Of a stretch of DNA of 64,000 nucleotides, positions 20,354 through 43,648 are shown one piece after another. The notes beneath the pieces were generated by a model. That model did no database searches, was not told the origin of the DNA, and worked only from the letters and a program-made list of their open reading frames with translations. The translations under genes and the position numbers were made by a program. This stretch comes from a virus: positions 36,108 through 100,107 of IMG/VR virus record IMGVR_UViG_3300025666_000003. One strand, given 5' to 3'. Each line of letters opens with the position of its first letter. Position 1 is the first letter of the stretch.

Positions 20354-23300
20354 CTAAAACATGAAAGGGAATACATTTGAACCCATAACATACCCACCAT
20401 CTTGTTGATATTGTGACATTGCATTGTCTACATCACTTCCAGCATAACCAGCTTGTTTAGCTAAAGCATCTCTGGCAGCTTTTTGTGCTACTGCAGCAGG
20501 TATACCTTGATCTAAATATTGCTGGAACCATTCATCATATGTCTTAGCTGTACGTTCACCTGTAAACTTTTTCTTCTCCCCTGTATAATCCATTTGACCA
20601 CCTACAGATGGGTCAACTGAATACTGCGGATACATTTGATTAAGTGCATCTGTTTTCCATCTATTGGTAATTGCTCCTGTATACAATCCTCTACCTTGAG
20701 CTCTTGATTGAGCCATTGAATTATCATATTGTTGATTAGCAATTGTATTTTGATCATACAATCTTTGATTTTTCTGAGCTTCTAACATACGCTCTTGATT
20801 TCTAACACCTACGTTAGCTTGTTCAAATTGATTTGCTATTCCAACATTTTGTGTATTGTGTCTTGAAATTGCTTCTGCAGTATTTCCTGCTAATTGACCT
20901 TGTATAGAACTTGCTCTTGCGGATGCTGCTTGTGGTCCTGTAAATTGAGATAAACCTTCCATCATTGAAGCAGCACCTGCTGTAGCTAGATTAGCATCAA
21001 ATCTTGGATCAGTAAATGTAGGATCCATTTCTTCAAGATCAACACCTGGTGCCCACGGCATGTACTTGTTGATTCTTGATCTGTCCATTATGTTACCTGC
21101 AATGTTTACTTCATCTTGCAACCACCATGGAGCGGGTCCTCTTGGGCCATCAGGTTCAATATCTACTTCTGTTTTCTTTCTTTCTTTTTCTTCTTTTAAA
21201 TCTTCTTCACCATATCCATAGTTACTTATACCAGCTAATTGACCTGCAGTTGTATTTCCATATATTGATTGTGATAAATCATCACTAAAATCATCAATAG
21301 GTGATACATTTGGAAACCTCTGACCTGTTTCATCTGAAGCACCCATTTGAACATTATTTGCAAAACTACGTAAAGCATACTGTTTATCTTGATCTGTATA
21401 AAGACCTTTATCAACATTATCAGTTAAAGTTGTATAACCATGGAAAGTAGCTTGTTGAAGTGCTCTTTCTTTTCCGCTAGCTTCAAGAGGAACTCCAATC
21501 AGCTTTGATGCATTCTGAATAGTAGTCCAACCTTTTTCTTTATACGTTTTGATTAGTTCTTTGCCTTCTTCTAAAGTTTTAACAATTTTTTTATTTACCA
21601 ATTCCTGAGCTGTTTTTAAACCTCTTCCACTATCTATAAATACTCTTGAGTTAATATCATTAGCACCAAGTTTAAGATTTCTTTCTTGATGTTTTAAGAA
21701 TGAAGCTATGATTTGATCATCTGTAGGTTTGGTATAACCTCTAGCACTCCATGTTTTACCATACTTTCCAGGTTTTCCATTTTTCCCTTTTCTTTTATAT
21801 GATTCTTTATTATCTAAAGCTGCCAAAGTTTGTTTAATAATTTCTGCTCTTACTATAGGATCTTTTACTGAAGCTACTAAAGCCTGATATTGTCCAGCTT
21901 CTACACGAGTAGCGTCTCCACCCCAAGAATCTATATCAGTACCTGAGTATTCAGGAAAAGTATTTTGTGTTTTTGTTATTTTTCTTCTCTTACCATCATT
22001 ACCAATAACTACTAACACTTTATTAGCTTTCTCAGCTTCATTAAATTTAAAATATTTAGCTCTTTTATACTCAGCTTCTGTTTTATAGTCTGATCTATTA
22101 ATAACTATTTCACCTTCCTTTTTTGCTCCACCCCCTTGATATTTATCAAGTTGACCACCACTTCTATAACTTGAATTACCATAATTCATTTCTGAATTTG
22201 GCATCATGTATCCTTCAGGCATCATATGATATCCTTCAGGTGTAGATTCTCCTCCAGTTTGAAATGTTGTTGAAACTCTAGGTTTTTTTCTTTGATGAAA
22301 TAAATCATATACTCTATCACCAAATGTTCTATTATATATATCTTCAGCTTCTTGATTTGAACCATATACATTTAAATCTGCATTTGGATTATAATGAAAA
22401 CTTTTATTTCCTTTTTGTACATATTCAGGACTGTTTGTAAATTCTTCAGAATTAGGATCTAATCCAATTTGATTATAAGAAGTATTATCTGCATCATTAA
22501 GATCATTAGTAGAAAACATAGTTTCTGGTAGTAAAGAAACACCTGTTTGAGCTTGAGGTATAAATCTTTGTAAACTACCTCCATTTCGTGCCATTGGCAT
22601 TTCTTCACAAGGAACACATTTATCTTGCATTATTGTTTGACCATTAGCTAAAGGCATAGGAACTTTTATCATACAAGGACATTTATCAATTGCATCCATA
22701 CTATTTTGTAAATACCCAGGAGTAGGTTTGCCCCAATCCATTCTATGCATCATTCTACGTTGAAAGTTTTTTTCATATTTAACTTTTTCTTCTGGAGTCA
22801 TTGATGGATTAGGTGTAGGTGAAATAATTTTTTCAAAATTTTGTCGGTTAAGATTGTATTCATTCTTTTTCTCCCACCAATCTTTTTCCTCTTGAGACCA
22901 TTTTGTTGGATCTGAAAGATTAGGATTATCTTTTAAATAATCTATTGTTTCTTGATCATTTTTAAACTCTTTTGGAAAAACTTCTCCATCCTTTTGATAT
23001 TTAGGAATAAATCTATTAAGAGGAGCTACTGATTCATAACCGTATCTAGCTAATGGCATTTCCTCCATTGGCTGCTGTTGTTGCTGTTGTTGATCCTGTT
23101 GAGCTAATTGTTGTTGTTCTTGCAACATCTCTTCTGGTAAAATATCTTGATCAGTAAGCCCCATCTTTTCCATGTAGGGTCTAGCAACTTGAGGAATACC
23201 TTGTTCAAAGTTTTTTAAAGATTCTTGTGCTAAAGCAAGTGCACCGAGTTTCATTTGAAACTCTTGTATCATTAATTCAGCAGTAGCAATATCTTTTTTA

Positions 23301-23776
23301 TCAGAATTAGGACTCTGTAAAATTTCTCTATATTTATTAATATCATATTGCTTAGCTAATTCTGCAGGAGTGTATCCTCTTTTAGATTTACCTTTTTTAT
23401 CAACTTTACCAAACATTGCTAAGACTTTTGGATCTTTAATCTTCATTTGATTAAAGTCACTAAAGATAAATGTATTAGCTGGAAGATTTAATGGTGTTCC
23501 TCCATTATTATGTCGTTTACCACCAATTACATAAGTTTCTGCAAAGTTATCTCCATTAATATCACCGTATGCAACTTCACCTTTTTCAGCTTCTAAATTA
23601 GCATTTTCCCTAGCTACTGGTTTTAAAGTACGGGAAGTTGATGTATTTTGCATTTTATTTTCATTAACATCTGCACCACCAAAGTTTCCAAATTGTTCTG
23701 GAACTGTGTTACTATAACCATTTGCAGCGCCTCCTGCTTTAGCTTGCGGTAATCTTTTTATTCTTACTCTACGCAT
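20354..23776 (-). CDS. Putative capsid cargo protein (1140 aa), modular, with repeated xxGG linker motifs
   Basis: N-terminal block ANLEAEKGE...GGKRHNNGGTPLNLP..FIFSD resembles crAss-like cargo proteins (from recall). Has a poly-Q stretch, a Q/N/A-rich helical C-terminus and about 9 linker motifs. Confidence 0.65.
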   Translation of the reverse strand: MRRVRIKRLPQAKAGGAANGYSNTVPEQFGNFGGADVNENKMQNTSTSRTLKPVARENANLEAEKGEVAYGDINGDNFAETYVIGGKRHNNGGTPLNLPANTFIFSDFNQMKIKDPKVLAMFGKVDKKGKSKRGYTPAELAKQYDINKYREILQSPNSDKKDIATAELMIQEFQMKLGALALAQESLKNFEQGIPQVARPYMEKMGLTDQDILPEEMLQEQQQLAQQDQQQQQQQPMEEMPLARYGYESVAPLNRFIPKYQKDGEVFPKEFKNDQETIDYLKDNPNLSDPTKWSQEEKDWWEKKNEYNLNRQNFEKIISPTPNPSMTPEEKVKYEKNFQRRMMHRMDWGKPTPGYLQNSMDAIDKCPCMIKVPMPLANGQTIMQDKCVPCEEMPMARNGGSLQRFIPQAQTGVSLLPETMFSTNDLNDADNTSYNQIGLDPNSEEFTNSPEYVQKGNKSFHYNPNADLNVYGSNQEAEDIYNRTFGDRVYDLFHQRKKPRVSTTFQTGGESTPEGYHMMPEGYMMPNSEMNYGNSSYRSGGQLDKYQGGGAKKEGEIVINRSDYKTEAEYKRAKYFKFNEAEKANKVLVVIGNDGKRRKITKTQNTFPEYSGTDIDSWGGDATRVEAGQYQALVASVKDPIVRAEIIKQTLAALDNKESYKRKGKNGKPGKYGKTWSARGYTKPTDDQIIASFLKHQERNLKLGANDINSRVFIDSGRGLKTAQELVNKKIVKTLEEGKELIKTYKEKGWTTIQNASKLIGVPLEASGKERALQQATFHGYTTLTDNVDKGLYTDQDKQYALRSFANNVQMGASDETGQRFPNVSPIDDFSDDLSQSIYGNTTAGQLAGISNYGYGEEDLKEEKERKKTEVDIEPDGPRGPAPWWLQDEVNIAGNIMDRSRINKYMPWAPGVDLEEMDPTFTDPRFDANLATAGAASMMEGLSQFTGPQAASARASSIQGQLAGNTAEAISRHNTQNVGIANQFEQANVGVRNQERMLEAQKNQRLYDQNTIANQQYDNSMAQSRAQGRGLYTGAITNRWKTDALNQMYPQYSVDPSVGGQMDYTGEKKKFTGERTAKTYDEWFQQYLDQGIPAAVAQKAARDALAKQAGYAGSDVDNAMSQYQQDGGYVMGSNVFPFMF

Positions 23777-23785
23777 AATACAAAT

Positions 23786-25954
23786 TTATATAAATTCTAG
23801 TTCTCCACCACTATTAATGAAGTCTTCTATATCTTCTTCACTCATATACATTTCATCACCTATCTGTCCACCTTTTTGTGATACACCTCTGAATCCTTGT
23901 TGATTTGGTCTAAAGTTACCTTGTTGACCCCAGTCACCTACTTTCTTTTTTCTTGTTACAGGGTTAAAAGCTTCAGCATTAGTTTGATCTTCCAACCATT
24001 TGTCTCTTGATTTTTCAGCTGGTTTTTCAAATATGTTACCTATAGTCCAGTTAGCTTTTGCATTAAAACCTTGAACCAATTTTTCACCATCAATATTATA
24101 CATATCTTTTTTTTCATAATCTACATCAGCTTTTCCTTGATTATCTCTATCATTTTGTGTAATTAATCCATCATTTTGATAGTTTCCATCTTCACCCATT
24201 GTAATTCCAGGTGTATAATTTTCATTTGTAAATGAATTAGTTATGTTTTTCATTAAAAATGGATTTTCAACTTGACTATTAAGACTGCCACCAACATCTT
24301 CGTTAATATCAAATGAAGGGTTTCCTTGAAAATCTCTACATACACCATCTGCGCCTTTAAAATAACCAGGCTTGCAAGTTTCTAGACCCATCTGTGCTCT
24401 ACTTAAGTTACCATTTTCTTGTCTTTGTTCAGGTCTACCTTGACGTACTTTATTCCACATATTTTGGAATACATTAGTACCACCTGTATCATTACCTTGG
24501 ATACCTTGCTGTGTTTTCCATTTCATTCTTTCAAATATATTACCTTCATCTGGAACTTTGTACCCTGCATCAATGGCATCACGTCTTTGTTCAACAGTCA
24601 TGTTTTCTGTATCACGTTTATTAATTCTACCTCTACTGTTAACAGGTGCATCTATCATAGGCATTTGTTGATTACCTAGTCGATTCATCATACCATCTGA
24701 TCCTCTATACATTGTAGGTGCTTCATAATTTTCTAATGCTGCACCAGGTACTATATTTGTTCCATATGTAGTTGTCCATTCTTGTGGTCTACCTCTTCTG
24801 CTTGCTTTAGTTACCTTAGTTTGTGTAGCATCATTGTAATTTATCCCTCCTGTATAAGGATTACCTTCCATATCTCTAGCATTACTGGCTTGTGCCCAAG
24901 AACCTTGGTATTCTACACCTCTGTTGAATGGTATTAAATCTCTCCAATTTCTTTTACCTTTCATTTTTTTATCAAATAAACCAGGATAAATGTTTTGTCC
25001 AGTTGATGTTTTACCAATTATACCACTATTAATTCTTCTTTGATTATTTATTTGCTGATCAATATACTTATCTCTTTCAGCTTGTATTCTTCTAGCTTCT
25101 GCATCATCTTTAACTTCACCTTCTGTTTGATATTTTTGTATACCACCTTTAGAAAATCTTGTAAGATCACCATCTACAAATCCACCATACTGGTTCATTT
25201 GTTGTTGTTCTTGGATCATTGCTTCATACTGCTCTTCAGCTTGCTTCTTTAAACTAGATTCATTTGAAGCTTCTTTAAGACCACTCATAAATTCTTCCTT
25301 AATTCTTTTTCTATCTCCTAGTGCACTATCTGTAATAGTTGCTTTAGTAACTTTAGGCTGTTCAGGTTGACCTACATCACCCATTTGTTTTTTAGCAAGT
25401 TTCATTACATTACTAACAAATTTCTTTTTACTTATTTGACCACCTTTTTTTGCTTCTACAAGTTCATCATCATACAAGTATGACTCATCAAGATCTTCAT
25501 TCATCATTTGATCATTCATCATTTGATTAGCTGATGGTTGTGATTGTATCATTTGTTCTTGCATTCCAGAATATTCAGGAGCTGTTTCTGCTGCAAGGTC
25601 ATCTTGTGGTTTTGGAATTCTTTTTTCATTAAATGAATCAACAACTGAACTTATCATTTTAGATAATTCTTCAGGATTTATTTGATCTTTAAGTTGTTTA
25701 AGTAAAGCTTCATAAATTATTTGTGGTTCTTCACCTTCTTCTAATGCTTGTGAAATAACACTAAGTAATTGTTGTTTTGGATCAACTTGTTGTTGTTGCA
25801 TAGGTTGCATAGGTTGTTGTTCCATAGGATATTGTGCTTCAGCCATATTACCGCCTTCCTGCACTCTATTCATAAACTGAGCTGTCCTATTTACATAAGC
25901 TCCTGCTCCTTCTGTAGCACCTCCTGCTTTATATACTCTTACACGTTTCTTCAT
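23786..25954 (-). CDS. Putative cargo protein (722 aa), Q/M-rich and modular
   Basis: Motifs YKAGG, VQEGG, AKKGG, NQYGG, FSKGG, SQKGG. C-terminal tag DEMYMSEEDIEDFINSGGELEFI. Confidence 0.55.
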   Translation of the reverse strand: MKKRVRVYKAGGATEGAGAYVNRTAQFMNRVQEGGNMAEAQYPMEQQPMQPMQQQQVDPKQQLLSVISQALEEGEEPQIIYEALLKQLKDQINPEELSKMISSVVDSFNEKRIPKPQDDLAAETAPEYSGMQEQMIQSQPSANQMMNDQMMNEDLDESYLYDDELVEAKKGGQISKKKFVSNVMKLAKKQMGDVGQPEQPKVTKATITDSALGDRKRIKEEFMSGLKEASNESSLKKQAEEQYEAMIQEQQQMNQYGGFVDGDLTRFSKGGIQKYQTEGEVKDDAEARRIQAERDKYIDQQINNQRRINSGIIGKTSTGQNIYPGLFDKKMKGKRNWRDLIPFNRGVEYQGSWAQASNARDMEGNPYTGGINYNDATQTKVTKASRRGRPQEWTTTYGTNIVPGAALENYEAPTMYRGSDGMMNRLGNQQMPMIDAPVNSRGRINKRDTENMTVEQRRDAIDAGYKVPDEGNIFERMKWKTQQGIQGNDTGGTNVFQNMWNKVRQGRPEQRQENGNLSRAQMGLETCKPGYFKGADGVCRDFQGNPSFDINEDVGGSLNSQVENPFLMKNITNSFTNENYTPGITMGEDGNYQNDGLITQNDRDNQGKADVDYEKKDMYNIDGEKLVQGFNAKANWTIGNIFEKPAEKSRDKWLEDQTNAEAFNPVTRKKKVGDWGQQGNFRPNQQGFRGVSQKGGQIGDEMYMSEEDIEDFINSGGELEFI

Positions 25955-25972
25955 TATAAACTTTATATATAT

Positions 25973-25987
25973 TAATATACTAAATTT
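25973..25987 (-). promoter_or_regulatory. Candidate phage promoter motif TTTAGTATATTA
   Basis: 18 nt upstream of the ATG at 25954. Shares 15 of 15 nt with the 43634 copy. Confidence 0.6.
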
Positions 25988-26013
25988 TGATGTATTGTTT
26001 AAACTTTATAAAT

Positions 26014-28323
26014 TTAAAATTCTTCTACTACATAACCACCGTCTCTATACTCTTGTATTTCTTCATCACTTAATTCCATTTCTATAAAGTTACCACCTTT
26101 AGAAAACTTATATGATTTTCCTTTGTCATCACTTTCTAATGCTGCACCAGTTGCTATTGCTCCTGGTATTATACCATATGTTTTATTTAAGACATCTGTA
26201 ACTGCTTTAATCCAATTTTTACTTCCTACAGGCATAGTAGGACTCATACTAGCAGATCCTGGTGAATTTAAAGAATAAGCATCTAAATAATTTAAAAGTT
26301 TATATATATCATCATATTTTCCACGTTGTAGTTGTCTCCCGCCTTTTACACCTCCCCTGTAATCACCTTTTAAAACCTTATGTTTATAGATACCTCCTTC
26401 TTCTGAGGGAGCTGACCATTCCCCAAACATGTTTGACTTTGCAAATTCTGTTTCTCCTTCGTTTAATCCTTTCCCCAGCTTTTCAACCATTTCCTCTGTA
26501 ATCTCATCTCCCATTTTTAAACCAGCATTTTCTTCTAACCAGCCGATAGCTTTTCTAAATCTAACTTGTTGTTCTGGAGCAATTGATTGATACTCTGCAC
26601 CACCAGGTATACTTACATTTTTATCTTCAGTAAGCTTTAAAGCAGGATAATTATCATATAAAGGTTGACCATGAAGTTTCCCATCTATAGAAATATAAGG
26701 ACCTTTTGAATCACTGAATAAATGATTAACTTCATGGTCTATAACACCTAAAACATCTTCTTTACTTTTATTTTTTAAGTTTCTAGTATTAATCGCTATT
26801 TTACCATTTCCTTCATATACACCACCCGCTTTATCTCCTAAGTCTTTTAAAGTAATAGAACCTTCATTAAATTCTTTTGTAAATTTTTCTATAGACTCTG
26901 TTACTTCCTCTCTACTTCTACCTGTAGCTTTCATATTATTAGTAATAAACTTATCAGTCGTAAGTCTACTTTTTATTTTTTGAACTATATCAGCAACATC
27001 TTTATTTGTTACTCCTAATTTAGACAAATCTGCAAGATCATTTGATTTTCCTAAAAATTTATTTATATTTGGATCTACTTGATTCATTCTTTTGTATACT
27101 GATACAATTTCATCTACAGGTGTTCCTTGTGCAATTGAATTAATAATTTCAGCTTTAGGTACGGATAAAGATATTTCGTTTAATTTAGGATTTAGTTTAT
27201 CTAAAGTACTAAATACTGATTCTAATGTAATAAGTGGAACTTCGTTTTTTAATGCAATCTCTGCAAAATCTTTTAATTGTTCATTTGTTACACCTGTTGG
27301 TAATTTGTAATCTTGGAAATTACCCATTTTTGGTACAGAATTATTTGTAACATAATATTTTTTATCAATTGATGCAGTGTTTTTTATTACATCATCAATT
27401 AATTTCTTAGCTAAAATTTCTTGATGCGTACCTACTTTTTTATTTATTAAAGCTTCTGCTTTTTTAAGTTCAGGAATCTTATTAAAAATTTCAGGACTGC
27501 GCCCTTTTAACTTGTCTAAAGTTTGTTTAAGTATAGTTTGATCATAAAAACTAATATCATCAGCAAGAGCTTTTGGAGCTTTTGGAACTTTTATATTTTT
27601 AGCTGATGCTGGAAGTGCTTTATGAGCTTTTCTTATTGCACGCCATTCTTTAGTTCCTGGTATAAATGCAAGTAAACCTAAGGCAGCTTCTACGTAATTT
27701 TCATTATCTATTGCCATATCTATGTCACTTGCCCATTTAAGTGGATTACCCATTTGATTAACAAAGTCAAGTGGGTTGGATCCTTGTCCTTTTCCTTCAT
27801 CACCATAGCCAAATTTTTCTCGGAAACTTGATGCAGTTGGATCAATTCCTGCATATAACATTTGATTATAGTTTCTTGGCATATTATCTAAGCCTCCACC
27901 TACAAATGAATATTTAGCTGCTGCAAAAGGATTACTAACAATATCTGAAAATCTGTCAATACCTCTATCCCAAGAACTAGGCTTGTCCCATTCTTCTACA
28001 GTGCCATGATTTTCTTTAGCAGTAGCATGCATATCGTATATGTCAACTAATTCACTAAGACTTTTAATATTATCTTTTACCATGTCTCCACTACCTGCTT
28101 CTCCTGTTTTAATTAACTCACGAGCAATTGCAGCTTTTTGTTGAAATATATTTATTGATTCATCAGTTAAATCTCCTCCATTTTTTGGTGGGTAATAGTT
28201 ATAAGGTTGTGTTGATTCAGAAACTGCTGGAGCATATGCAGGATTATCTAAAATTGGGTCATAAGTTGCCCCTGTTCTACCTTTTTGTGCTTTTGGTAAA
28301 GCTTTTATTTTATATCGTGCCAT
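26014..28323 (-). CDS. Putative cargo protein (769 aa) with an HExxH zincin-like metallopeptidase domain
   Basis: GVIDHEVNHLF (HEVNH at 26722-26736), preceded by AGGVY..GKIAIN. Leader MARYKIKALPKAQKG. C-terminal tag EMELSDEEIQEYRDGGYVVEEF. Confidence 0.6.
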   Translation of the reverse strand: MARYKIKALPKAQKGRTGATYDPILDNPAYAPAVSESTQPYNYYPPKNGGDLTDESINIFQQKAAIARELIKTGEAGSGDMVKDNIKSLSELVDIYDMHATAKENHGTVEEWDKPSSWDRGIDRFSDIVSNPFAAAKYSFVGGGLDNMPRNYNQMLYAGIDPTASSFREKFGYGDEGKGQGSNPLDFVNQMGNPLKWASDIDMAIDNENYVEAALGLLAFIPGTKEWRAIRKAHKALPASAKNIKVPKAPKALADDISFYDQTILKQTLDKLKGRSPEIFNKIPELKKAEALINKKVGTHQEILAKKLIDDVIKNTASIDKKYYVTNNSVPKMGNFQDYKLPTGVTNEQLKDFAEIALKNEVPLITLESVFSTLDKLNPKLNEISLSVPKAEIINSIAQGTPVDEIVSVYKRMNQVDPNINKFLGKSNDLADLSKLGVTNKDVADIVQKIKSRLTTDKFITNNMKATGRSREEVTESIEKFTKEFNEGSITLKDLGDKAGGVYEGNGKIAINTRNLKNKSKEDVLGVIDHEVNHLFSDSKGPYISIDGKLHGQPLYDNYPALKLTEDKNVSIPGGAEYQSIAPEQQVRFRKAIGWLEENAGLKMGDEITEEMVEKLGKGLNEGETEFAKSNMFGEWSAPSEEGGIYKHKVLKGDYRGGVKGGRQLQRGKYDDIYKLLNYLDAYSLNSPGSASMSPTMPVGSKNWIKAVTDVLNKTYGIIPGAIATGAALESDDKGKSYKFSKGGNFIEMELSDEEIQEYRDGGYVVEEF

Positions 28324-28325
28324 AA

Positions 28326-31300
28326 TTATATTTTTTCAAAAACGTAACCTTGTTTTTCTAATGCTTTTACTTCTTCATATGTAAGTTCAACTTCATCATT
28401 TATTTTACCATTAAATTGTGTTGTACCGCCTTGTTCTAAAAACTTAGGGTTACTGATAGATGCAATTGAAGGTACTGAATCTAATTCTTTATCTTGTTTT
28501 ATTTTTCTTTTTATTTCTGCACGTTGCCGTGATCTTTTATCTACTGGAAGACCAAGAGATGCACCTAAAGTAAATGTAGGACGGAATCCTAAATTTTCAG
28601 AATTATTTGATTCTGTATCTGTTTTTTTACCTAATACTGGATTAAACATTACTCCTGCATTTAGTTTAAGAATTGAATTATTTTTAAGTTTTCTTTTATA
28701 ATCTGCTTTAATACCATAATTTAATCCAAGTTGTGCTTCTTTTCTATCTTCACCAAATACTTGTGTTGCTGATGCATGTGGTTTTGTTTGTGCATTCATT
28801 CCACCATAAGGAGTTATGTTTAATTCATTTTGCCTATTTTTAATTGCGTGAATTTTATGACCTGCGCTTAAATCATAATACCCTCCTCTTACTGGATCTA
28901 AACCTATATTTTGTTTCATGAAGTTTTTAGCTGGCCAACTTCCTCTTTGTTCAGTTCCAAACTCATAACCTGCTTTAGCACCAAAACCAAAGTTACCACC
29001 ATAGACATCTCCTGATAAAGTGTGAATATTAGATCTATCTTTTGTCCCTCTAAATTCATGCTCTAATCCAAGATTACCCATTAAACCATAGTCATCTGAA
29101 TTATACTGCGGACCTAAAGAAAGAGTTGTGCCATTCTGAGCTTGTGGTAATTCCTCTACTACGTAGCCTCCATCTTTGTATGCTTTAATCTCGTGTTCAT
29201 CTAAGTCAAGTTCAATATAATTATTATTTTGCCCACCACTTTGCAAAAATCCTATTTTTCTAGATTCTAAGTCTTCAGGTTTAACAGCTTTCTCTCGTTG
29301 CACCCATCCTATTACAGGTTCTTTCACCCATTCTAAAGTACTAGCTGGTGGCTTAACTGTTCCTGGTGTAGATTTTTTCTTTATAGGTGCAGGCTTACTA
29401 ACAGGTATATCTTCAATAGAAACCTCTGGACTTGCTATAGGTTCAACATTTCCTATAGGTCTTTCTGTACTTATAGCAACAGCATCTGCACGTTCTTGAT
29501 CAGTCATGTTCCGTCCATTCTTCTTATAGTATTCAGCATCAGCTATAAAGGCATCTAGTGTTGGATATTTTTCTTTATCTACATTCTTGTACGCAGCTTT
29601 ATATGACTTCTTAGGTTGTATTATATTAATCAAGGTACCAAATGTATTAGGATCAGGAAGTAATTCTTCTTCTTCTTCTTCTTTATATATGTAAGGTTGA
29701 ACTGGTTTTGAATATGTTACATTGTAACCTGAATATTGTGGTCCTGAACCTGTTAACCATTGACTCCAAGTTTGGTGTGGTGTATATGCACCTGTTGGAC
29801 CTATAGTAGGATGACTAAATTCAGCATGGATAGCTTTATTCTTTAGATCTTTTGTAGGTTTTTTATTTTCATCCCAGTTATCCGAAACTCTTATATTAGG
29901 ATTATCTGGATGCGGATAGGATGCTGCTGAAACACTATTATAAAGCTGTGGTGGTTGATTCATTGGTTTGGTTGCTTGATATAAATCTCCCAAGCTCTCA
30001 GAACTATTTACAGAATCGAAACCTATTAAATCACCTACTCTATTTTTGAAATCATTACTAAAGTTATAAAGATCTAAACTATCCTTATAACCCTGTAATC
30101 TTGGATCATCAGGATCTGTTAACTCTATAGGCTTTCTACCTCCTCTTTGAGCTTTAGGTATAAATCTATTTAATGTGCCTCCTTTTTGCAAATAACTACC
30201 TGTACTTAGATTATACTCTTTTAAATCTTTAGGTTTAACAGGTCTCTGTATTTGATACCAAGTTCCTGTTTGTGGATGTTTTACCCACTGTAGAGTAGAA
30301 GCTGGTGGTTTAACTGTTCCTGGTGTATCAGCAGGGGTATCTTTAATAGGAACTTTTGGTATTCTGTATGCACCCATTCTTATATCAAAGTAATCAGGGT
30401 CAGCACCTTGCCTCTCCATTAATTTCTTCATTTCTGGCCCGTCAGTGATACTTATTCCGACAGGTGCATGATATGTGTAGTCATCATCTTCATACATTAC
30501 ACCTGGATTTTCAACAGGTTTTATATAATAATCTTTGTCAAGTACCTCTATACTTTTTATTTGATTTTCATCTGTACCATTATTCCCTATATAATCAGTA
30601 ACGTTAGTTATCTTAGCTAAATCTTCAGCAGGCATATTTCTACCATTCTTCTTATAGTATTCAGCATCAGCTATAAATGCATCAATAGTTGGATATTTTT
30701 CTTTGTCTACATTTTTGTATGCATCTTCATATGACTTCTTAGGTTGTATTATAGTACCAAGTGCCCGTCCAGATGAAGAACTAGAAGATGAAGTTTTGTT
30801 TCTAGTTAATTCTTTTTCTTCTTCAGTCTTCATATCCCAAGGCTTTATTGAAGTTGGATTATAATAAGGTAACTTTGTCAAAGCTCCAGGAGTTTTGGCG
30901 CGAACTTTGTTTTGTTGCAGTTGTCTATAAAGAAGAACTTTCATATCTTTCTCAGTAAAGCCTTTAGATTTAGCATACGTAATAAGGTCTTTTTTACCAG
31001 TATTGGTGTCATCATATTCCAAAAAAAGATGAAGATTATCAGGATCTCTGTGAAGCTTTTCATAAAGCTCACGTTCTGTTTTGTTTAACTTATTATAACC
31101 AAACATATTTTTTGGAGTGTACATTATCTCACCTTCAGGTTTTATTCTGTGATCATATCTTAGTAAAGGTGCATTAGTATCTATTGCACCTGTAATCATA
31201 TCACTTGTGTAAGATATGTTTGGATCATTGTTACGCTCAATTATTTTTGTATTATCATATGATAAATCAGAATGACCCATAGTTTCTGCCTCAATTTCTT

Positions 31301-32888
31301 TCATTCTTGAATTAGTTTCACCCCAATGAGGAAAAATATCTACATCGTAAAAATTTTTATTTTTATCATAAAACCCCTGAACTTCCATTGCATTATTGTA
31401 AAGATCTAAACTATCTTGTCTAGTAACTTCTATTGGTGGTACTCTTCTTGATGGAAAAATGCCAGTTTGTGCTTTTGGTAAGAATATATTTTCGCCACCT
31501 TCTTGTAAAGTATTAGTAAACATTTTAAGCTGAGCTAATGTAGGTTTGAAAGGTTTTTTAGTTATACTACTTGTTCCAATATTATACGATGGACCTTGTG
31601 CACGTCTTTCTCTTTCGTACCATGTTCCAGTTGAAGGTGATTTATGCCAAGTAGTAGCAGATCCAGGTAATTCAAGAAGAGCATTATTTGTCTTATCATG
31701 AATAAGCTGTTTATCAATTTCTTTAGTTGGTATTTGTTCTAAAGGTTTGGTAGGAAGTGTAGGAGTTTGCGCTTCTTCCCATGCTGCTTTATCCATTACT
31801 GGTTTCTTGTAAACAGGTGACGTATGACTACCATCCCAATATGTTCCTGTAGGTTTTATTGTCTCGTGATATAGATCAGGAGATGTTGCAATACTATTTC
31901 TTACATTACCATTGAATGGTAAAGTATCATAGTAGTTTAATATTTTTTCAGCACTAGGATCATCTGTACCATAAGCATTTATTAAAGCTTTCCTGTTAGA
32001 GAATCCACCTGCATTATAATTATTCCAATCCCAAGAATGATTACTTGCCATAAATCTATTACGTCTATCTTTTAAACCTTGTTCAAGAGTAAGTCCTTTA
32101 TTGTTATAATATCTTTCCATGGATTCTTTCTGAGCAGGATCATTACCCAAAACTTCCATTGTAGACAATTGGTTAGCCTTTTGAAATTGATAAGCATTGT
32201 ATAAATTTAAACTATCACTATAGGCTGCTTGATTAAATATATCACCACCTGTTTGCTTATTTTGTAAATGTTCTGGTAATTGATCTTTCCAAGAACCCAT
32301 TCCAAAAGCTAATGCAGCTTCCTTATCCTTTCCAAAATCATATACCTCACCTCTTTTCTCAGCCTCTTCATATATTGGCCACCAACCATCTTTTTCATCA
32401 GACATGTCAACCCAATTTCTAGAGTCGTCTGCGTATGGTTTAGAGTCTTGAAATAATGAAGGGAATGCTACCCAACCTCTTCCGTCTACGTACTCTGCTT
32501 TCATTAAGTGAGAGGATACATCAGAAGGTCTAGAAAACTGACCTGAAGGTGTCCAAACAGAATGCCCGTCATAGTTTTCTCTTGTCCCTCTTCTTTGTTT
32601 TACAGTATGACCACCAGATTGCATTTGTGGAAATTCATCAACATAGTCTGCACCGGGAAAATTATAATCTTGTCCTGGTTGCATCATCATACCTGGGCCA
32701 ACATTAGGTTGTGCCCATACAGGGTAAGGTACATTATCCATAGTAATATCACTACCTGGAATTCTTGTATTTTCTCCAGGATGAGCCCATTGTCCTCTTG
32801 GATCTTTTATTATATCCTTTGGTTTTGATGGAGCTTTTGCTTTACCTAATTCTGATATAGCTTTTGAAAGAAGTTTTTTATTATACAT
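28326..32888 (-). CDS. Putative multi-module cargo polyprotein (1520 aa): three paralogous modules plus a beta-barrel-like module
   Basis: Ten linker motifs, internal protein and DNA repeats, and an amphipathic beta-strand module near the C-terminus. Confidence 0.6.
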   Translation of the reverse strand: MYNKKLLSKAISELGKAKAPSKPKDIIKDPRGQWAHPGENTRIPGSDITMDNVPYPVWAQPNVGPGMMMQPGQDYNFPGADYVDEFPQMQSGGHTVKQRRGTRENYDGHSVWTPSGQFSRPSDVSSHLMKAEYVDGRGWVAFPSLFQDSKPYADDSRNWVDMSDEKDGWWPIYEEAEKRGEVYDFGKDKEAALAFGMGSWKDQLPEHLQNKQTGGDIFNQAAYSDSLNLYNAYQFQKANQLSTMEVLGNDPAQKESMERYYNNKGLTLEQGLKDRRNRFMASNHSWDWNNYNAGGFSNRKALINAYGTDDPSAEKILNYYDTLPFNGNVRNSIATSPDLYHETIKPTGTYWDGSHTSPVYKKPVMDKAAWEEAQTPTLPTKPLEQIPTKEIDKQLIHDKTNNALLELPGSATTWHKSPSTGTWYERERRAQGPSYNIGTSSITKKPFKPTLAQLKMFTNTLQEGGENIFLPKAQTGIFPSRRVPPIEVTRQDSLDLYNNAMEVQGFYDKNKNFYDVDIFPHWGETNSRMKEIEAETMGHSDLSYDNTKIIERNNDPNISYTSDMITGAIDTNAPLLRYDHRIKPEGEIMYTPKNMFGYNKLNKTERELYEKLHRDPDNLHLFLEYDDTNTGKKDLITYAKSKGFTEKDMKVLLYRQLQQNKVRAKTPGALTKLPYYNPTSIKPWDMKTEEEKELTRNKTSSSSSSSGRALGTIIQPKKSYEDAYKNVDKEKYPTIDAFIADAEYYKKNGRNMPAEDLAKITNVTDYIGNNGTDENQIKSIEVLDKDYYIKPVENPGVMYEDDDYTYHAPVGISITDGPEMKKLMERQGADPDYFDIRMGAYRIPKVPIKDTPADTPGTVKPPASTLQWVKHPQTGTWYQIQRPVKPKDLKEYNLSTGSYLQKGGTLNRFIPKAQRGGRKPIELTDPDDPRLQGYKDSLDLYNFSNDFKNRVGDLIGFDSVNSSESLGDLYQATKPMNQPPQLYNSVSAASYPHPDNPNIRVSDNWDENKKPTKDLKNKAIHAEFSHPTIGPTGAYTPHQTWSQWLTGSGPQYSGYNVTYSKPVQPYIYKEEEEEELLPDPNTFGTLINIIQPKKSYKAAYKNVDKEKYPTLDAFIADAEYYKKNGRNMTDQERADAVAISTERPIGNVEPIASPEVSIEDIPVSKPAPIKKKSTPGTVKPPASTLEWVKEPVIGWVQREKAVKPEDLESRKIGFLQSGGQNNNYIELDLDEHEIKAYKDGGYVVEELPQAQNGTTLSLGPQYNSDDYGLMGNLGLEHEFRGTKDRSNIHTLSGDVYGGNFGFGAKAGYEFGTEQRGSWPAKNFMKQNIGLDPVRGGYYDLSAGHKIHAIKNRQNELNITPYGGMNAQTKPHASATQVFGEDRKEAQLGLNYGIKADYKRKLKNNSILKLNAGVMFNPVLGKKTDTESNNSENLGFRPTFTLGASLGLPVDKRSRQRAEIKRKIKQDKELDSVPSIASISNPKFLEQGGTTQFNGKINDEVELTYEEVKALEKQGYVFEKI
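29515..30753. repeat. Imperfect ~110-bp direct repeat (about 29515-29625 and 30643-30753), plus a second ~45-bp repeat (about 29325-29369 and 30282-30327)
   Basis: Both long copies read ccattcttcttatagtattcagcatcagctataaa...atatgacttcttaggttgtattata and encode IIQPKKSYxxAYKNVDKEKYPTxDAFIADAEYYKKNGRNM. The short pair encodes TPGTVKPPASTL(Q/E)WVK. Confidence 0.95.
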
Positions 32889-35800
32889 TACCTTGGGGAT
32901 ATTTGATTCTTAGTATTAACTATTTTCACTACCATGTTTACACCATTTGATATATCTTTTCTTAAATATAGCATATTATTGTAATGTCTGAACTTTTTTC
33001 TTTGCAAAGGTTCTTTTGTATAATTAAGATTAAATTCATTTAAAGCTTTAATATAACCATTTGATTCTGTAATCCAAATGTGTCTTTGTTGTTTTCCACC
33101 TAGTTGAGTTGTTGTTCCAGGAATTACTGGATTAGTAGTTGGACTACTTGAGCCTACAGGAAACTCTCCTCTATCTCTTGTTATATCCCAAAACTGATTA
33201 AATCTATATTTATGTTCTTCCTTTGAAAATAGTATATCTATTGAACTACCATTTATGATAGGGTATGTGAGATTTAAAGGAACATTGTTTTTAGGATATA
33301 TAAATAAATCTAAATATCCGGATACTTGCTCAGTGTTATGTATTACAGCTGTATCAAAATTATAATCTAATACATGAAATTGATCTACACAATTATATTC
33401 ATTTCTTCTATAGCACTCAAGTAAATATTCTACACTTTTCATTGTAGTTATTGTCTGTCCAGTCACTATAGGAATTTCAACTTCAAATGGATAGTTAGTA
33501 CCATAAAAGTTACAGTATTCATTACATAAATTATTATGTTTCCAAACACCGTTATCTTTAACAGTTAAAAAATTACCTTTAGATGCTAGCATTATATTTG
33601 GATGCCAGTCATGATGAGAAACCCAGAATTTAGATTTTGGATCATATGACATTGTCCAAGAAGCATCTTCAAATATATTTGCATCTTTAAGATTAGTTCT
33701 TATTACATCATCTACTATAAATTGTTTAAGTTCTTCATTCCAAACTACTCTTCCTTTAAACGGATCTTTTAATTTGTAATCTTTTTTAGCAAAGTAAAGT
33801 ACACTGTTTTCATTATCATATATTGAATGACATCCAATACCAGCTACTGGATTATCAGTATGTGGATAATTTGGAAAATCTTCTAAAAGTTGAAATGGTA
33901 AGAATTTATTAAACCACCATTTTAATCCTGAACTTGATATTTCTTGTAAACCAGATGCATATGAAAATATTTTACCTTGATTTTGACTTATGTAAAACAT
34001 ACCAGCTGGCGTAGATATTACACTTCTTCCATTTTGAGATGATCCATATTCATATTCTTCATCTGCAGCTACTACATTTTGTGCAGCTTGATTAAACAAC
34101 CCACCATCACCTAAGGTAACTTTAGTACCTAAGTCTGTTTGTAAAGTATCAACACCTTGGTAAACCATAGGGCTTGCATTTTTAAACGTAATAAATATAC
34201 CCGTTTTAGCAAAGTTTTTTACACTACTTATTTGATTTTTAAATTCTTTATAATTATTAGGTAAATACATAAACCATGAATCTTTTACTGATTCTAATTC
34301 TTGTGGTAATGAATAAAGAATTCTATCTGGATAATATGTATAACAAAGTTCTGCAACTTGAGGATCATAAAACCTAGTTTGAAGATTACCTTGTGAAAAA
34401 TATTGAGTAAACAATTTTGATATACTTAAAGAGTAATCATATTCGTTATAGTTACCTCTAGTAATAACATCTGGATTCATATTAAATAATCTATACAAAT
34501 CAGTATATCCATATGGGTCATAATGTTTTTCAAAAATTTCAACACCTTGTTCTCTAAAATCTACAATAACATCACTCTCAACATAAAAGTCTCTTACAGC
34601 TGATGTAGACAAATAGAAGTATGCATTTTTAATTCCAAATATTCCGTTATTAAGATTAGCTATTGTTCCTAAAATACTATTATCATTACTGTAATTATAA
34701 TTTTCCCAATCTAGATTATAATAATTATGTGGAAACAGTCCTTCACCTTCAGGAGGTGTATTAAATGGATTAATAAAATCTATAAGATTTGCCCACATTG
34801 CATTGGCTTCATATCTTATACTATTCATCCAGAATCGTGGATCAGGAATCATCTTTCTATTTAGATAATTATATTCAGTTCCATCTGGTTGATCATATAA
34901 CCAATCATGAAACATAAACATAGAATTCTTTTCTGTATATCTATTAATGTAAGTATCTCCTTCAAATAATATAGGCGTTGTTTGAATAATTTTTTGTTCA
35001 AATTGAGGAAGGCTGCATGCTGGAGCTAATGTAGTAATGGGAATATCAGCATACTCAAACTTTTGTTCACACGGTGTAATTGGAATTTGCTTTATTGCTT
35101 GTAATTGCCCATACTGATTTCCTATACGTACTTTAATACCTCCGTAATGACTTTTGATATTTTTATTAAAAGTTTTTGTTTTACCTTTTTTAAAGTCAAC
35201 ATGTGATACATCAGAAGTACCTATAGTAACTAATGAATCATCAGCTCCAGGCCCTGTAAGAAAATTTGGACCACCTGTTACTCTGCTAACTCCTTCAGAA
35301 GTTCTAATAACTACTGTTTCAGATCTTCTAAGATTATTAATTCTATAAGTAACTGGAAAGCCAAAAGTTGCAGGTGTATAACTAGACATTTCTTGAAGAT
35401 CTTGACCTAAATAAAATTCATCTTCTATATTAAATCTACGTATCTTTGTTAGATCAACTTTATTAAACGTATCATAGTACCCATGTGCAATTAATTGAAG
35501 AGCACGTTGTCTATAAGGTACAAGAGAATATATTAATCTAATTACTAAATCTGCTCCTTCTGAAAAGTAATATAGCATTTGTGCTAAATCATTGCCAAAT
35601 ACATTTGCTAAACTACTATTTTTAAGATATTGATGTTTACTTAACTCTGTGTCATAACTAGGTGCTGTGTATGTACCACCTGCACGTAAACCACCATCTA
35701 AATTAAATTTATCATAATGATCTTGTAAAGAGCCATCTGTACCTACTCCTGGAATGAATGAAAAGATACTTGATAAACCTTCATTTACAGCTTCACCATT

Positions 35801-38278
35801 ATTAAAATAGTCATCATATTCATTTGTGTATGTAGGTTCATCATTATTTGTAAATTCATCAACACCTGAACCACCAGTGACTCCAGAATCATCTGAGTAT
35901 TCTACTATTTCTGTAGAACCATCATTACTGTTAAGTGGACTTATAGTTCCTGGAGTAAGTAATCCAGAACCACCCGTTAAAAAACCACTTGTACCACTTG
36001 TACCACCTCCACCACCAATTGAATTTTGGGTATAGTCATCACCAAAGACTCTAGTAAAACTAGCTCCTGGAGCATTAATAGTTCTCTTACCTAAATTAGC
36101 TATGATAGCTTCAATAATACCACCCATAATAGCAGCCCACATTGCAACATCTTTTAAAAGCTTATCTTTAGGATGCTTACTAGGTTCTATAAACTGTTGA
36201 TCGCTTTCACCACTTATATTACCATATAGTTTTAATTCTGTAGTTCCTAAAAAAGGTTCTTTAAATTCAGTATCTGGTGAGTGAAATGTTATTATGTCTT
36301 CTGGAATATTTGCTTCAGTAATATCAATTGTATCATCATCATTGTCTACTGCTCTGATATATGGATCAACAGCACCATTGACACCTCCTGTTGGATTAAT
36401 AGTATTAAAAGGATGATTAGGGTATAATCCTGCTGTACCACCCCCTGTTACTCTGTAAGGTCTCATATTATTAAGCATACCTTTTGCTATAATAGTTTTG
36501 TTTCCATCACGAGCTCCTCTTAATATTTCATATCCTACTAAATTTGGTATATCATTACCATCATTATCTTTAGGATAAATTATATTTTCAAACAATACTC
36601 CTAGAATTCTAATTTTACTACCATCAGTTCCGTTATCTATAAAATGATTTACATCATCGTTTACACTTTGTTCTGGAAACTTATGATGTCTAATTTGCAA
36701 TCCACATAAATCCCATTGTTCACTTGCTTGACCATATACACCTGTCCAACACTGAGCACTTGAATTCCAAATTTCAGGTTTATTATCAGGATAAAATTCT
36801 GTTGACTGCCAGTATCCCATGTCACCTGTTCTTAACACTACACCACCATCTGGAAGTACTGTTCCATTTGGAGTACCTGATGTAGCTGTATTTATAGTTT
36901 CAAATAACAGTGTATCATCAGGAAGGCTATCGTCATCTGAGTATACAGAATTTTCAAACAAACCAGTATTTTGAAATAATCTTGGCCCTCTACCTGGAAT
37001 ATGATAAGATGAAGTTTTATCTCCTGTATTGTATACCCATCTAATAAAAAATGGATAATTTTCATCTCTTAAATAACTAGGCTTATGCCCACCTTTAGAA
37101 TAATATCTTGCAGGATATTCTACTGAAGCCCACTTAGCTTTAATTAAATTTGCTAATGGTTGATAATTAAAATCAAATTTAGATGTAGGACCTATTCTTA
37201 ATAAATAGTTATCTATCTCAACTATTTCATCTGATCTTTCAAAAATAGGATTTTGTAATGGAATAAGACTTAATTGTACAGGAATAAGATCTTCTTTTAT
37301 TTGATCAATATATATAGTTGTTGTACGAGTAGAATAGTATCCTATCTTTTTTGCAACAGCACCTTGATTTATATTTTGAATTATAACAAGTTCAAATTCA
37401 TCAAAATGTTCTGAATCAGCTTCTACATTAATCTTTAAGCCACCTCTTGCATTATCTTTATGCCAAATAGGCTGAACATTACTAGGTGAATAATAATCTG
37501 TAACTTTCTGATTTTTAATAGTATACGCAAGTACTACAAAATATGAACCATTAAATAAAGTACCACCTTGTGTACCAGATTCAATTGTTAAACAAGGTGT
37601 ATCAACTAACCTAGCTAATCTAATAGCATTGCAATCAAGCTCTTGTGTATCTACACATATCTTACAACCATTTACAATTGGACAATCTTCAATCCATTGT
37701 ACACCTGGCCATTGTATAGTATCACTTCCATTTGTATATTCATTATCACTTGCCCATACAAAATCATTTGAAGGCCATATTTGAGGATCCCCAATGTTTA
37801 AATACCTATCTGGATTATTACTATCTGCAAAATACACTGCCCATGAACAATCTTCCTTTTCTCTTGAAGCTCCTGTAATTAAATTATATCTATCAAAGTT
37901 TAAACAATTATCCTGAACAATAATTTTATAACTACATAAGTCTTCTTGAAATAAACCTATTTCATCTTTTTTACCTGTTTGACCGGGTCCTAAAATAGAA
38001 GTTGTAAAAATTACCCAGTTATCACTAAATAAATGTATTGCACCAATTATTTCTTTTTCAGAACCTACTAATGTTTCCCCTGCAGTAATACATAAATAAT
38101 TAGAAGATTCATTTGATAATGTACCTAAGTTACCTTCTGCTGTATTATTTACAGCATTACGAGCATGTGTCCATTCTCCTTCAGATACAAAAGATGGATC
38201 CGCATCTTTGTTTAACCCTTTAAAAAAAGTATTAGTATTTAGTTGACCTGTATTTTGTTTTCCTTGTTTTTTAGCCAT
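32888..38278 (-). CDS. Tail muzzle / stabilisation protein (P22 gp10-like), 1796 aa
   Basis: N-terminus NTFFKGLNKD...WTHARNAVN, beta-rich propeller-like composition, and C-terminal WTMSYDPKSKFWVSHHDWHP. Lies after the ring proteins as in crAss-like phages. Confidence 0.8.
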   Translation of the reverse strand: MAKKQGKQNTGQLNTNTFFKGLNKDADPSFVSEGEWTHARNAVNNTAEGNLGTLSNESSNYLCITAGETLVGSEKEIIGAIHLFSDNWVIFTTSILGPGQTGKKDEIGLFQEDLCSYKIIVQDNCLNFDRYNLITGASREKEDCSWAVYFADSNNPDRYLNIGDPQIWPSNDFVWASDNEYTNGSDTIQWPGVQWIEDCPIVNGCKICVDTQELDCNAIRLARLVDTPCLTIESGTQGGTLFNGSYFVVLAYTIKNQKVTDYYSPSNVQPIWHKDNARGGLKINVEADSEHFDEFELVIIQNINQGAVAKKIGYYSTRTTTIYIDQIKEDLIPVQLSLIPLQNPIFERSDEIVEIDNYLLRIGPTSKFDFNYQPLANLIKAKWASVEYPARYYSKGGHKPSYLRDENYPFFIRWVYNTGDKTSSYHIPGRGPRLFQNTGLFENSVYSDDDSLPDDTLLFETINTATSGTPNGTVLPDGGVVLRTGDMGYWQSTEFYPDNKPEIWNSSAQCWTGVYGQASEQWDLCGLQIRHHKFPEQSVNDDVNHFIDNGTDGSKIRILGVLFENIIYPKDNDGNDIPNLVGYEILRGARDGNKTIIAKGMLNNMRPYRVTGGGTAGLYPNHPFNTINPTGGVNGAVDPYIRAVDNDDDTIDITEANIPEDIITFHSPDTEFKEPFLGTTELKLYGNISGESDQQFIEPSKHPKDKLLKDVAMWAAIMGGIIEAIIANLGKRTINAPGASFTRVFGDDYTQNSIGGGGGTSGTSGFLTGGSGLLTPGTISPLNSNDGSTEIVEYSDDSGVTGGSGVDEFTNNDEPTYTNEYDDYFNNGEAVNEGLSSIFSFIPGVGTDGSLQDHYDKFNLDGGLRAGGTYTAPSYDTELSKHQYLKNSSLANVFGNDLAQMLYYFSEGADLVIRLIYSLVPYRQRALQLIAHGYYDTFNKVDLTKIRRFNIEDEFYLGQDLQEMSSYTPATFGFPVTYRINNLRRSETVVIRTSEGVSRVTGGPNFLTGPGADDSLVTIGTSDVSHVDFKKGKTKTFNKNIKSHYGGIKVRIGNQYGQLQAIKQIPITPCEQKFEYADIPITTLAPACSLPQFEQKIIQTTPILFEGDTYINRYTEKNSMFMFHDWLYDQPDGTEYNYLNRKMIPDPRFWMNSIRYEANAMWANLIDFINPFNTPPEGEGLFPHNYYNLDWENYNYSNDNSILGTIANLNNGIFGIKNAYFYLSTSAVRDFYVESDVIVDFREQGVEIFEKHYDPYGYTDLYRLFNMNPDVITRGNYNEYDYSLSISKLFTQYFSQGNLQTRFYDPQVAELCYTYYPDRILYSLPQELESVKDSWFMYLPNNYKEFKNQISSVKNFAKTGIFITFKNASPMVYQGVDTLQTDLGTKVTLGDGGLFNQAAQNVVAADEEYEYGSSQNGRSVISTPAGMFYISQNQGKIFSYASGLQEISSSGLKWWFNKFLPFQLLEDFPNYPHTDNPVAGIGCHSIYDNENSVLYFAKKDYKLKDPFKGRVVWNEELKQFIVDDVIRTNLKDANIFEDASWTMSYDPKSKFWVSHHDWHPNIMLASKGNFLTVKDNGVWKHNNLCNEYCNFYGTNYPFEVEIPIVTGQTITTMKSVEYLLECYRRNEYNCVDQFHVLDYNFDTAVIHNTEQVSGYLDLFIYPKNNVPLNLTYPIINGSSIDILFSKEEHKYRFNQFWDITRDRGEFPVGSSSPTTNPVIPGTTTQLGGKQQRHIWITESNGYIKALNEFNLNYTKEPLQRKKFRHYNNMLYLRKDISNGVNMVVKIVNTKNQISPR

Positions 38279-41513: not shown

Positions 41514-41536
41514 GTTTTTATTTTTATTAATCTTTA

Positions 41537-42019: not shown

Positions 42020-42030
42020 ATTAATCTGTA

Positions 42031-43629: not shown

Positions 43630-43633
43630 ATTA

Positions 43634-43648
43634 TAATATACTAAATTT
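43634..43648 (-). promoter_or_regulatory. Candidate phage promoter motif TTTAGTATATTA
   Basis: Exact 12-mer in three intergenic gaps: 25973-25984, 40561-40572 and 43634-43645. Confidence 0.6.

Follow-up and report, generated by a model that had tools for sequence, protein, structure and literature searches.

Few phages of gut and environmental Bacteroidota are as abundant as the crassviruses. In PhicrAss001, the genes that follow the muzzle gene encode the cargo proteins gp45 (C1; PDB 7QOG, 7QOI, 7QOJ, 7QOL and 8CKB; Pfam PF25725, crAss_CARG1) and gp46 (C2), and then giant RNA-polymerase-associated proteins; cargo and giant proteins alike have been detected in virions, and it is presumed that the phage ejects them into its host (Bayfield et al. 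2023, PMC10172136). Polyvalent proteins, large phage mosaics of swappable domains, are likewise presumed to be packaged and to enter the host along with the DNA (Iyer, Burroughs, Anand, de Souza and Aravind 2017, PMC5512222). Here we examined the IMG/VR virus record IMGVR_UViG_3300025666_000003 (100,107 bp, G+C content approximately 30%, estimated to be 84% complete). The window analysed is its right-hand 64,000 nucleotides (positions 36,108 to 100,107), and coordinates below are those of the window. Four adjacent genes on the minus strand, P0001 (1520 amino acids (aa)), P0002 (769 aa), P0003 (722 aa) and P0004 (1140 aa), encode 4151 residues in total and carry many copies of a short motif ending in Gly-Gly. 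We read these motifs, at a probability of roughly 45%, as seams between modules that stay uncut and serve as docking handles.

The source phage is crAss-like, since Pfam finds the families of the muzzle protein (32888-38278, minus strand, 1796 aa; PF25731 crAss_MUZ, E value 1.3e-25), the Ring 1 protein (38288-39295), the Ring 2 protein (39295-39966) and the crassvirus major capsid protein (50416-52032). The portal protein is probably encoded at 53453-56203. The muzzle gene lies directly upstream of P0001, and the four genes thus come next after it, at the same place as the cargo genes of PhicrAss001. A preliminary description, made from the letters of the DNA alone, had taken the four products for cargo-type proteins; this is supported: together they would make up the phage's cargo (ejection-protein) block, they consist of swappable modules and, judging from their position, they are probably packed and injected. 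Pfam and PHROGs gave no match in P0001-P0004.

The four proteins contain 17 copies of the motif in its Gly-Gly form, [AYFLM][QKRES]xGG, whereas 1000 composition-preserving shuffles of them gave a mean of 2.1 and a maximum of 7 (Poisson tail 1e-10). All other open reading frames (ORFs) of the genome, 27,955 residues together, contain only 5 copies (Fisher 1e-11). A companion motif, P[KQL][AY][QRK]x(1-2)G, was found eight times in P0001-P0004 and once elsewhere in the window. Enrichment is thus strong for the Gly-Gly form; the loose form with a single Gly exceeded expectation only about 1.6-fold (41 copies against 25.5), and RAQMG, PLARYG, AKKGG and LEQGG are therefore weak on their own. All 30 copies listed in the preliminary description were found in place, MQSGG (32610-32624) and KQTGG (32244-32258) to the nucleotide, and the counts confirm its remark that the flanking structural genes lack comparable clustering. 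Gly-Gly pairs are more numerous in the muzzle protein (20), yet their contexts there are random. The same confinement was observed in 80 related loci. The motif is present in all of them and enriched only in the cargo block, with ratios to shuffles of 3.6 for the block, 2.4 for the P0004 family, 0.9 for the muzzle and 0.6 for what lies downstream. Across 119 P0001 homologues we counted 707 copies against 225 expected, an approximately 3-fold excess. The literature searched contained no description of the motif, nor of cargo processing in Crassvirales.

The location of the motifs relative to folded regions was examined in P0004 (20354-23776), which belongs to a large conserved family with at least 1397 homologues. 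An AlphaFold2 model built on 51 homologues is confident at residues 61-225, 270-340, 551-860 and 880-1120. All nine motifs fall into the stretches with a predicted local distance difference test (pLDDT) score below 50 (residues 1-60, 226-269, 341-550 and 1124-1129). The folded N-terminal domain (aa 61-225, 23102-23596, pLDDT 66-88) is followed by a linker (aa 226-269) with the motif pair PLARYG ... PKYQKDG (22985-23056, pLDDT below 50), and ARNGG, PQAQTG, FQTGG, YRSGG and YQGGG are all situated in the long linker of aa 341-550 (22127-22756), which stays below pLDDT 50 over its whole length. The last residue of YQGGG is 550, and the best-predicted domain (551-860) begins right there. The protein opens with a basic leader, MRRVRIKRLPQAKAGG (23729-23776, pLDDT below 40), and closes with QQDGGYVMGSNVFPFMF directly before the stop codon (20357-20407), a family-wide KKGG-h-V-Y-G-x-x-x-F-P-F-h-h in which P1137 and F1138 are invariant. 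The family keeps the leader as M-x-x-K-V-R-I-K-K-L-P-Q-A-K-T-G, together with internal h-Q-x-GG and L-P-K-A-Q-x-G motifs. Among 51 leader sequences, P10 and G15 are invariant and V4, I6 and A12 nearly so. Residues 1-60 as a whole contain invariant P10, G15, G33, G34 and D36, yet are modelled with pLDDT below 40. Conservation combined with predicted disorder is typical of segments that fold on binding, which suggests such a behaviour for this region. Searching P0004 against the phage collection with tblastn gave no match, and Foldseek and VIA-align found only generic helical-hairpin matches for the whole model (Z about 7) and none for the N-terminal domain. A long helical hairpin is predicted at 20600-21140 (aa about 880-1050); its generic matches to the IpaB translocator, EsxA and the T7 tail complex are not significant.

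Exchange of modules at the motif was seen in P0001 (28326-32888), which consists of a conserved N-terminal anchor module and variable modules, and has no basic leader. Its 139 homologues, 850-2570 residues long, are mosaics that share mainly residues 1-95. The anchor module (aa 1-93, 32610-32888), ending in PQMQSGG, is covered by 97-113 of 119 relatives, and immediately past MQSGG coverage falls from 113 to 46. The second module (aa 101-215, 32244-32588), ending in KQTGG, is covered by 24-46 relatives, and past KQTGG coverage drops from 24 to 6 and stays at 6 or below. When P0001 and its homologues were aligned all against all with BLAST, homology ended 0-5 residues past a motif in 258 cases against 54 expected, a count somewhat inflated in that the motif itself can be aligned. 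The domains carried by the relatives include SET, protein kinase, ART-PolyVal, lysozyme, amidase, VanY, NlpC/P60, YkuD, LysM/SLT and histidine-phosphatase domains. The first 95 residues show the highest conservation within the block, with 50-85% identity across some 100 mosaic proteins that are otherwise unrelated, and open with a predicted amphipathic stretch (KKLLSKAISELGKA); this module could anchor to a conserved part of the virion. The muzzle of PhicrAss001 has a bound 14-residue helix that is unassigned. Further along P0001, a direct repeat of 135 nucleotides (29494-29628 and 30622-30756, 87% identity) corresponds to a duplicated module, GT-IIQPKKSY..KNVDKEKYPT.DAFIADAEYYKKNGRNM. Three W-x-K-x-P-x-TG-TWY-like elements each immediately precede an h-Q-x-GG motif, and the region between PQAQNG and LEQGG (28540-29130, aa about 1255-1450), rich in Gly and aromatic residues in an alternating pattern, is found in only 4-6 relatives.

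The motifs are parts of a larger composite, which we designate the junction cassette. It comprises h-Q-x-GG, an optional acidic tag, and a short strand that leads into P-[KQ]-A-Q-x-G(G). The acidic tag comprises about 22 residues, arranged as strand, helix, x-x-GG and strand, as in YIELDLDEHEIKAYKDGGYVVEEL. Paired motifs with a short spacer, such as LQKGGTLNRFIPKAQRGG, had been pointed out before; the pair proves to be a conserved composite that is also visible in the DNA as a repeat of 45 nucleotides (D2), with 82% identity between the cassettes of different genes at 22542-22586 and 30142-30186. In P0001, LQKGG-TLNRFI-PKAQRGG (aa 900-917, 30138-30191) is the partner of the P0004 cassette in D2, LQEGG-ENIFL-PKAQTG (aa 461-476, 31461-31508) contains a third copy of the repeat, and the full internal form LQSGG-QNNN-YIELDLDEHEIKAYKDGGYVVEEL-PQAQNG (aa 1215-1253, 29130-29246) is common to 17-18 relatives. 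The logo in the P0001 homologues reads D-E-[IL]-P-x-[MYF]-[QKR]-[DK]-G-G-Y-[IV]-V-E-E-L. Shorter repeats, D6 and D18, give cassettes of different genes 24-31 nucleotides in common.

Parts of the cassette recur at the natural ends of the proteins. Three of the four cargo proteins begin with a basic strand and P-x-A-Q-x-G or Y-K-x-GG, and three of the four end in an acidic tag. The tag of P0001, LEQGG...VELTYEEVKALEKQGYVFEKI before the stop codon (28329-28439), is of type T1, which precedes basic leaders in related loci. In related loci, orthologues of P0003 (23786-25954) immediately precede P0004 homologues. P0003 itself opens with a basic leader containing two motifs, MKKRVRVYKAGG ... NRVQEGG (25850-25954), and ends in SQKGG-QIGDEMYMSEEDIEDFINSGGELEFI before the stop codon (23789-23881). 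In 41 orthologous ends of this tag, Gly-Gly is invariant and the consensus is YMTxEEIxxFLAxGGExEYL. Internally it bears a triple motif, NQYGG-FVDGDLTR-FSKGG-IQ-KYQTEG (aa 254-279, 25118-25195), which shares DNA repeat D18 with PKYQKDG of P0004. In the fused orthologue P0046, which joins a P0003-like to a P0004-like protein, the junction reads ...VQKGG-FL-PQAKTG..., with neither tag nor leader. The equivalent junction here reads ...SQKGG, acidic tag, stop codon, Met, basic strand, LPQAKAGG. Judging from these junctions, the genes are split inside the cassette. We then compared 99 non-redundant junctions inside the cargo blocks of related loci. The last 25 residues of the upstream protein had a mean net charge of -5.2 (controls +1.5) and residues 2-13 of the downstream protein +4.1 (controls -0.7), and an acidic end together with a basic start was present in 72% of the junctions. 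In 41 of 42 cases the tag variant GGEIEYL (type T3) preceded the leader variant KVRIKKLPQAKTG (type L3). The giant proteins encoded downstream of P0004 have neither basic leader nor acidic tag.

P0002 (26014-28323) consists of a basic leader, MARYKIKALPKAQKG (28279-28323), three swappable modules and an acidic tag, FSKGG-NFIEMELSDEEIQEYRDGGYVVEEF before the stop codon (26017-26106). In an exhaustive HMMER search, separate stretches (about 5-250, 275-425, 425-625/746 and 734-768) matched at varied positions in 133 proteins, and the tag alone (query 734-768) matched internal sites in many of them. The internal module borders, at about 250-275 and at 425, carry no motif. The preliminary description had placed the motifs at boundaries between modules and proposed comparing predicted domains and orthologues. 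This is supported for P0001, by module swaps and coverage drops among its mosaic relatives, and for P0004, by the linkers of the model, but not for the internal borders of P0002. The module at aa 425-625 (approximately; 26449-27051) is the only recognizable effector or enzyme module in P0001-P0004, the other modules being without known family. It resembles zincin metallopeptidases and contains HEVNH (26722-26736); H530, E531, H534, E584, Q585 and Q586 are invariant in 31 sequences. The top Foldseek matches of its AlphaFold2 model (pLDDT 77.6) are all zincins, at weak E values of 0.2-1, and neither the module nor its small stand-alone relatives match Pfam. The HEVNH ... EQQ module is also found on its own, as proteins of 170-400 aa, and as part of larger ones of up to 2562 aa. 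As it is sporadic, being present in only 6 of the 80 related loci while the motif is universal, it is more likely one more swappable effector than an enzyme serving the motif. Other metallopeptidase candidates in the genome are HEAWH in a 4246-aa giant protein and a 439-aa protein of the replication module with a DUF2201_N putative metallopeptidase and a VWA-like domain (genome 15644-16963, outside the window; L082). A metalloprotease domain is also annotated in gp77 of PhicrAss001.

In the reading that we favour, the four ORFs would act like a single long cargo chain that has become divided into separate genes. The cassette, placed in flexible linkers between folded modules and at natural polypeptide ends, would stay uncut and have two roles, one as the seam at which modules are exchanged between phages, as the comparison of relatives shows, and the other as a docking handle that becomes ordered only on binding. 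Its partner could be a part of the virion, such as the portal or tail channel, or the matching handle of a neighbouring cargo protein, with the acidic C-terminal tag of one protein docking to the basic N-terminal leader of the next. In this way the cargo would enter and leave the particle as a string of proteins in a set order. A more specific version, which we consider rather unlikely, is a non-covalent 'cargo train' in which each acidic tag binds the following basic leader by charge-complementary strand pairing. Such a train would start at the anchor module of P0001, end at a portal-binding P0004, and be loaded and ejected in gene order, its modules remaining freely swappable.

Other explanations were considered. 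An origin of the motif by chance, as a compositional effect of linkers of low complexity rich in Gly and Gln, might have been suspected from the slight enrichment of the loose form and the weak matches among the listed copies. It is refuted by the composition-preserving shuffles (none of 1000 above 7 copies, against 17) and by conservation, the motif positions being kept across hundreds of homologues, and the random contexts of the more numerous Gly-Gly pairs of the muzzle also speak against it, so that we regard it as extremely improbable. A more serious rival is that the motifs are protease sites, with a phage zincin or an enzyme of the host dividing packed precursors into their modules at Gly-Gly or beside it, and with leaders and tags being trimmed. 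Consistent with this, the motif is placed in exposed linkers between modules and close to either protein end, and motif pairs would yield spacer peptides, as in other viral polyproteins. Candidate enzymes exist in the HEVNH module, the HEAWH of the giant protein and the DUF2201_N-VWA protein. On the other hand, the hydrophobic residue stands one place further from Gly-Gly than in sites of the adenain or ubiquitin type, the next position is Q, K or R interchangeably, and the simple form is unconstrained after Gly-Gly. Conservation covers 12 upstream residues in the leader and 6 downstream residues in the tag, a longer stretch than cleavage would require. Processing of phage polyvalent proteins by zincin-like peptidases has been proposed (Iyer et al. 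2017, PMC5512222), but HEVNH is found in 6 of the 80 related loci, against a motif present in all. Peptidases of clan CE, C48 (PF02902) and C5 (PF00770), were not found in the genome at E values up to 1, an absence that is not absolute because the record is estimated to be 84% complete, and in the structural and replication modules no prohead protease family was recognized. Natural protein ends never coincide with Gly-Gly, C-termini lying 5-12 residues after it and N-termini about 10 residues before. In PhicrAss001, the portal-bound density of gp45 comprises residues 425-552, of which 425-428 are an intact AFGG (PMC10172136 and the gp45 sequence); this argues against obligatory cutting, in a distant relative. 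The passages on PhicrAss001 gel electrophoresis and mass spectrometry report bands from 15 to >300 kDa, and contain no word on gp45 at full length. The idea of the preliminary description that precursors are cut into many small effectors is thus not supported by the peptidase searches, the sporadic HEVNH, the protein ends or the intact AFGG. Cleavage is rather improbable, and a weaker reading than that of seams and handles; a repeated docking signal, although unproven, fits the data better than cutting into small effectors. Three particular modes of breakage were rejected: autoproteolysis of the SEA or another type at the Gly-Gly-Tyr-Val-Val turn, as no nucleophile follows Gly; 3C-like cleavage after Gln, as the position is Q, K or R interchangeably; and peptide-bond skipping of the 2A type, as there is no NPGP.

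The cassette might also be a flexible hinge and recombination joint without specific binding. Gly-Gly would give partly unfolded modules the freedom to thread through portal and tail, and the conserved coding sequence would supply the homology for swapping. Module exchange at the motif, its position in linkers and the DNA shared by cassettes of different genes (45 nucleotides at 82% in D2, 24-31 in D6 and D18) agree with this, and polymorphic toxins offer a parallel in the demarcation motifs at their swap points. A plain hinge, however, needs no aromatic or hydrophobic residue at a fixed distance, no adjacent Q, K or R and no P-x-A-Q frame. It leaves unexplained why acidic tag and basic leader arise exactly at gene splits, and why leader residues do not vary among 51 or more diverged sequences. 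The modest DNA identity is for the most part what 30% G+C and strong codon bias would produce. Taking these points into account, we consider a hinge alone unlikely.

Several points weigh against the seam and handle reading itself. The docking partner is hypothetical, and we infer the presence of P0001-P0004 in virions from gene position. The low pLDDT of the linkers is not proof of disorder. Approximately 28% of the junctions are without charge complementarity, internal tags have no adjacent basic strand, and the pairing of tag and leader could mirror conserved gene order alone. Other viruses remove short terminal peptides at similar sites, as in adenovirus pVI and the capsid-targeting sequences of T4, so the leaders and tags could still be trimmed. 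The link to gp45 also gave mixed results. In an ESM Atlas feature search with P0004 residues 55-230, clusters carrying PF25725 ranked first (183 shared features at a score of 0.92), and P0004 and gp45 have a short stretch of local similarity, EKGEVAYGD...FIFSD against EQGEVVYDDYVFSD. The domain at P0004 61-225 is thus possibly related to the portal-bound domain of gp45 (424-555 in PF25725). The PF25725 hidden Markov model (HMM), which scores gp45 itself at 2.3e-66, had no match in the whole genome at E values up to 10 or in P0004 1-180 up to 1. BLASTP and hhalign comparisons of P0004 or its alignment with gp45, and of its profile with PDB sequences, gave nothing significant. As the Pfam HMM and the profile comparisons see nothing, this kinship is a lead rather than a result.

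Downstream of P0004 are genes for proteins of 1158, 2255, 4246 and 1994 aa, which by size and position match the PhicrAss001 genes after gp45 and gp46. PF25712 (crassvirus cargo protein 2), with which gp46 scores 6.4e-219, did not match P0001-P0004 or the 1158-aa protein in Pfam, and no significant match was found between the 1158-aa protein and gp46. In the related locus L005, and also in L003 and L004, the homologue of the 1158-aa gene (10709-13801 of L005, start MATYLQGVTDY...) is directly preceded by a 211-aa GIY-YIG-like ORF (10071-10706 of L005, start MATYLQSISGIYKITN...). The L005 ORF resembles a homing endonuclease inserted at the start of the gene, with the first six codons duplicated. 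Within the window, several structural proteins encoded at 40692-46204 open with Cys-rich stretches (MSCNKCNLSKCGC, MSCGNCKCDCSC), and an 839-aa protein in this region is also Cys-rich; none of them has a Pfam match.

A cassette at every cargo joint and end would provide a concrete, mutable handle on how several megadaltons of protein are loaded and injected in order, and with it on the question of whether the cassette directs loading, couples the proteins or marks where they are cut. Such a cassette would also account for the free shuffling of kinase, SET, ADP-ribosyltransferase and cell-wall hydrolase modules. If it is a loading signal, it might be used to pack foreign proteins into phage particles. 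Our analysis adds the grammar of gene splits, an acidic tag followed by a basic leader, and shows that the motif does not always go together with the HEVNH zincin.

Comparison with known systems places the block as follows. Like the cargo block here, the gp45 gene of PhicrAss001 comes directly after the muzzle gene. The gp45 protein has a basic N-terminus followed by aromatic-x-x-GG (MAKKKIKRRGKMPPNIFDTGG), with further aromatic-GG motifs at 209, 263, 332, 427 and 562, and the pieces ordered in cryo-electron microscopy begin at or next to such motifs. The barrel-bound helix 214-245, for example, begins four residues past SAYGG (PMC10172136 and the gp45 sequence). In contrast to gp45, the function here would be spread over four genes and 4151 residues, the consensus is [YFLM]-[QKR]-x-GG together with P-K-A-Q-x-G rather than F/Y-A-x-GG, and gp45 lacks an equivalent of the acidic tag and of the long N-terminal anchor module. 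With polyvalent proteins the block shares its mosaic nature, relatives of P0001 carrying ART-PolyVal, kinase, SET and peptidoglycan-hydrolase domains and P0002 a zincin-like module. Gene position and the PhicrAss001 precedent suggest that its proteins may be delivered into the host with the DNA. Pfam detected no MuF, ART-PolyVal or MPTase-PolyVal domain in P0001-P0004 themselves, ART-PolyVal being found in the relative P0136. The words 'crAss' and 'linker' do not occur in the account of polyvalent proteins, and it does not describe a conserved peptide at junctions, nor acidic tags or basic leaders (PMC5512222).

Our cassette can also be set beside short peptides of other systems. It resembles the sites at which clan CE cysteine proteases (adenovirus protease, pS273R of African swine fever virus, Ulp/SENP) process polyproteins at Gly-Gly, in being a short motif that ends in Gly-Gly after an upstream hydrophobic residue and is repeated in putative virion proteins; no such peptidase was found here, and the hydrophobic residue is offset by one. 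The capsid-targeting sequences of T4 internal proteins and the cargo-loading peptides of encapsulins are terminal peptides that send unrelated cargo into a shell of the HK97 fold, whereas the peptides here are also internal, repeated, and paired as acidic and basic at gene splits. In polymorphic toxins, demarcation (pre-toxin) motifs such as VENN in CdiA and DPxGL in Rhs mark where a conserved delivery part meets swappable modules; here the sequence is another, each protein has many seams instead of one, and the setting would be a phage virion. The system can be regarded as a probable variant of phage-packaged modular cargo, or polyvalent proteins.

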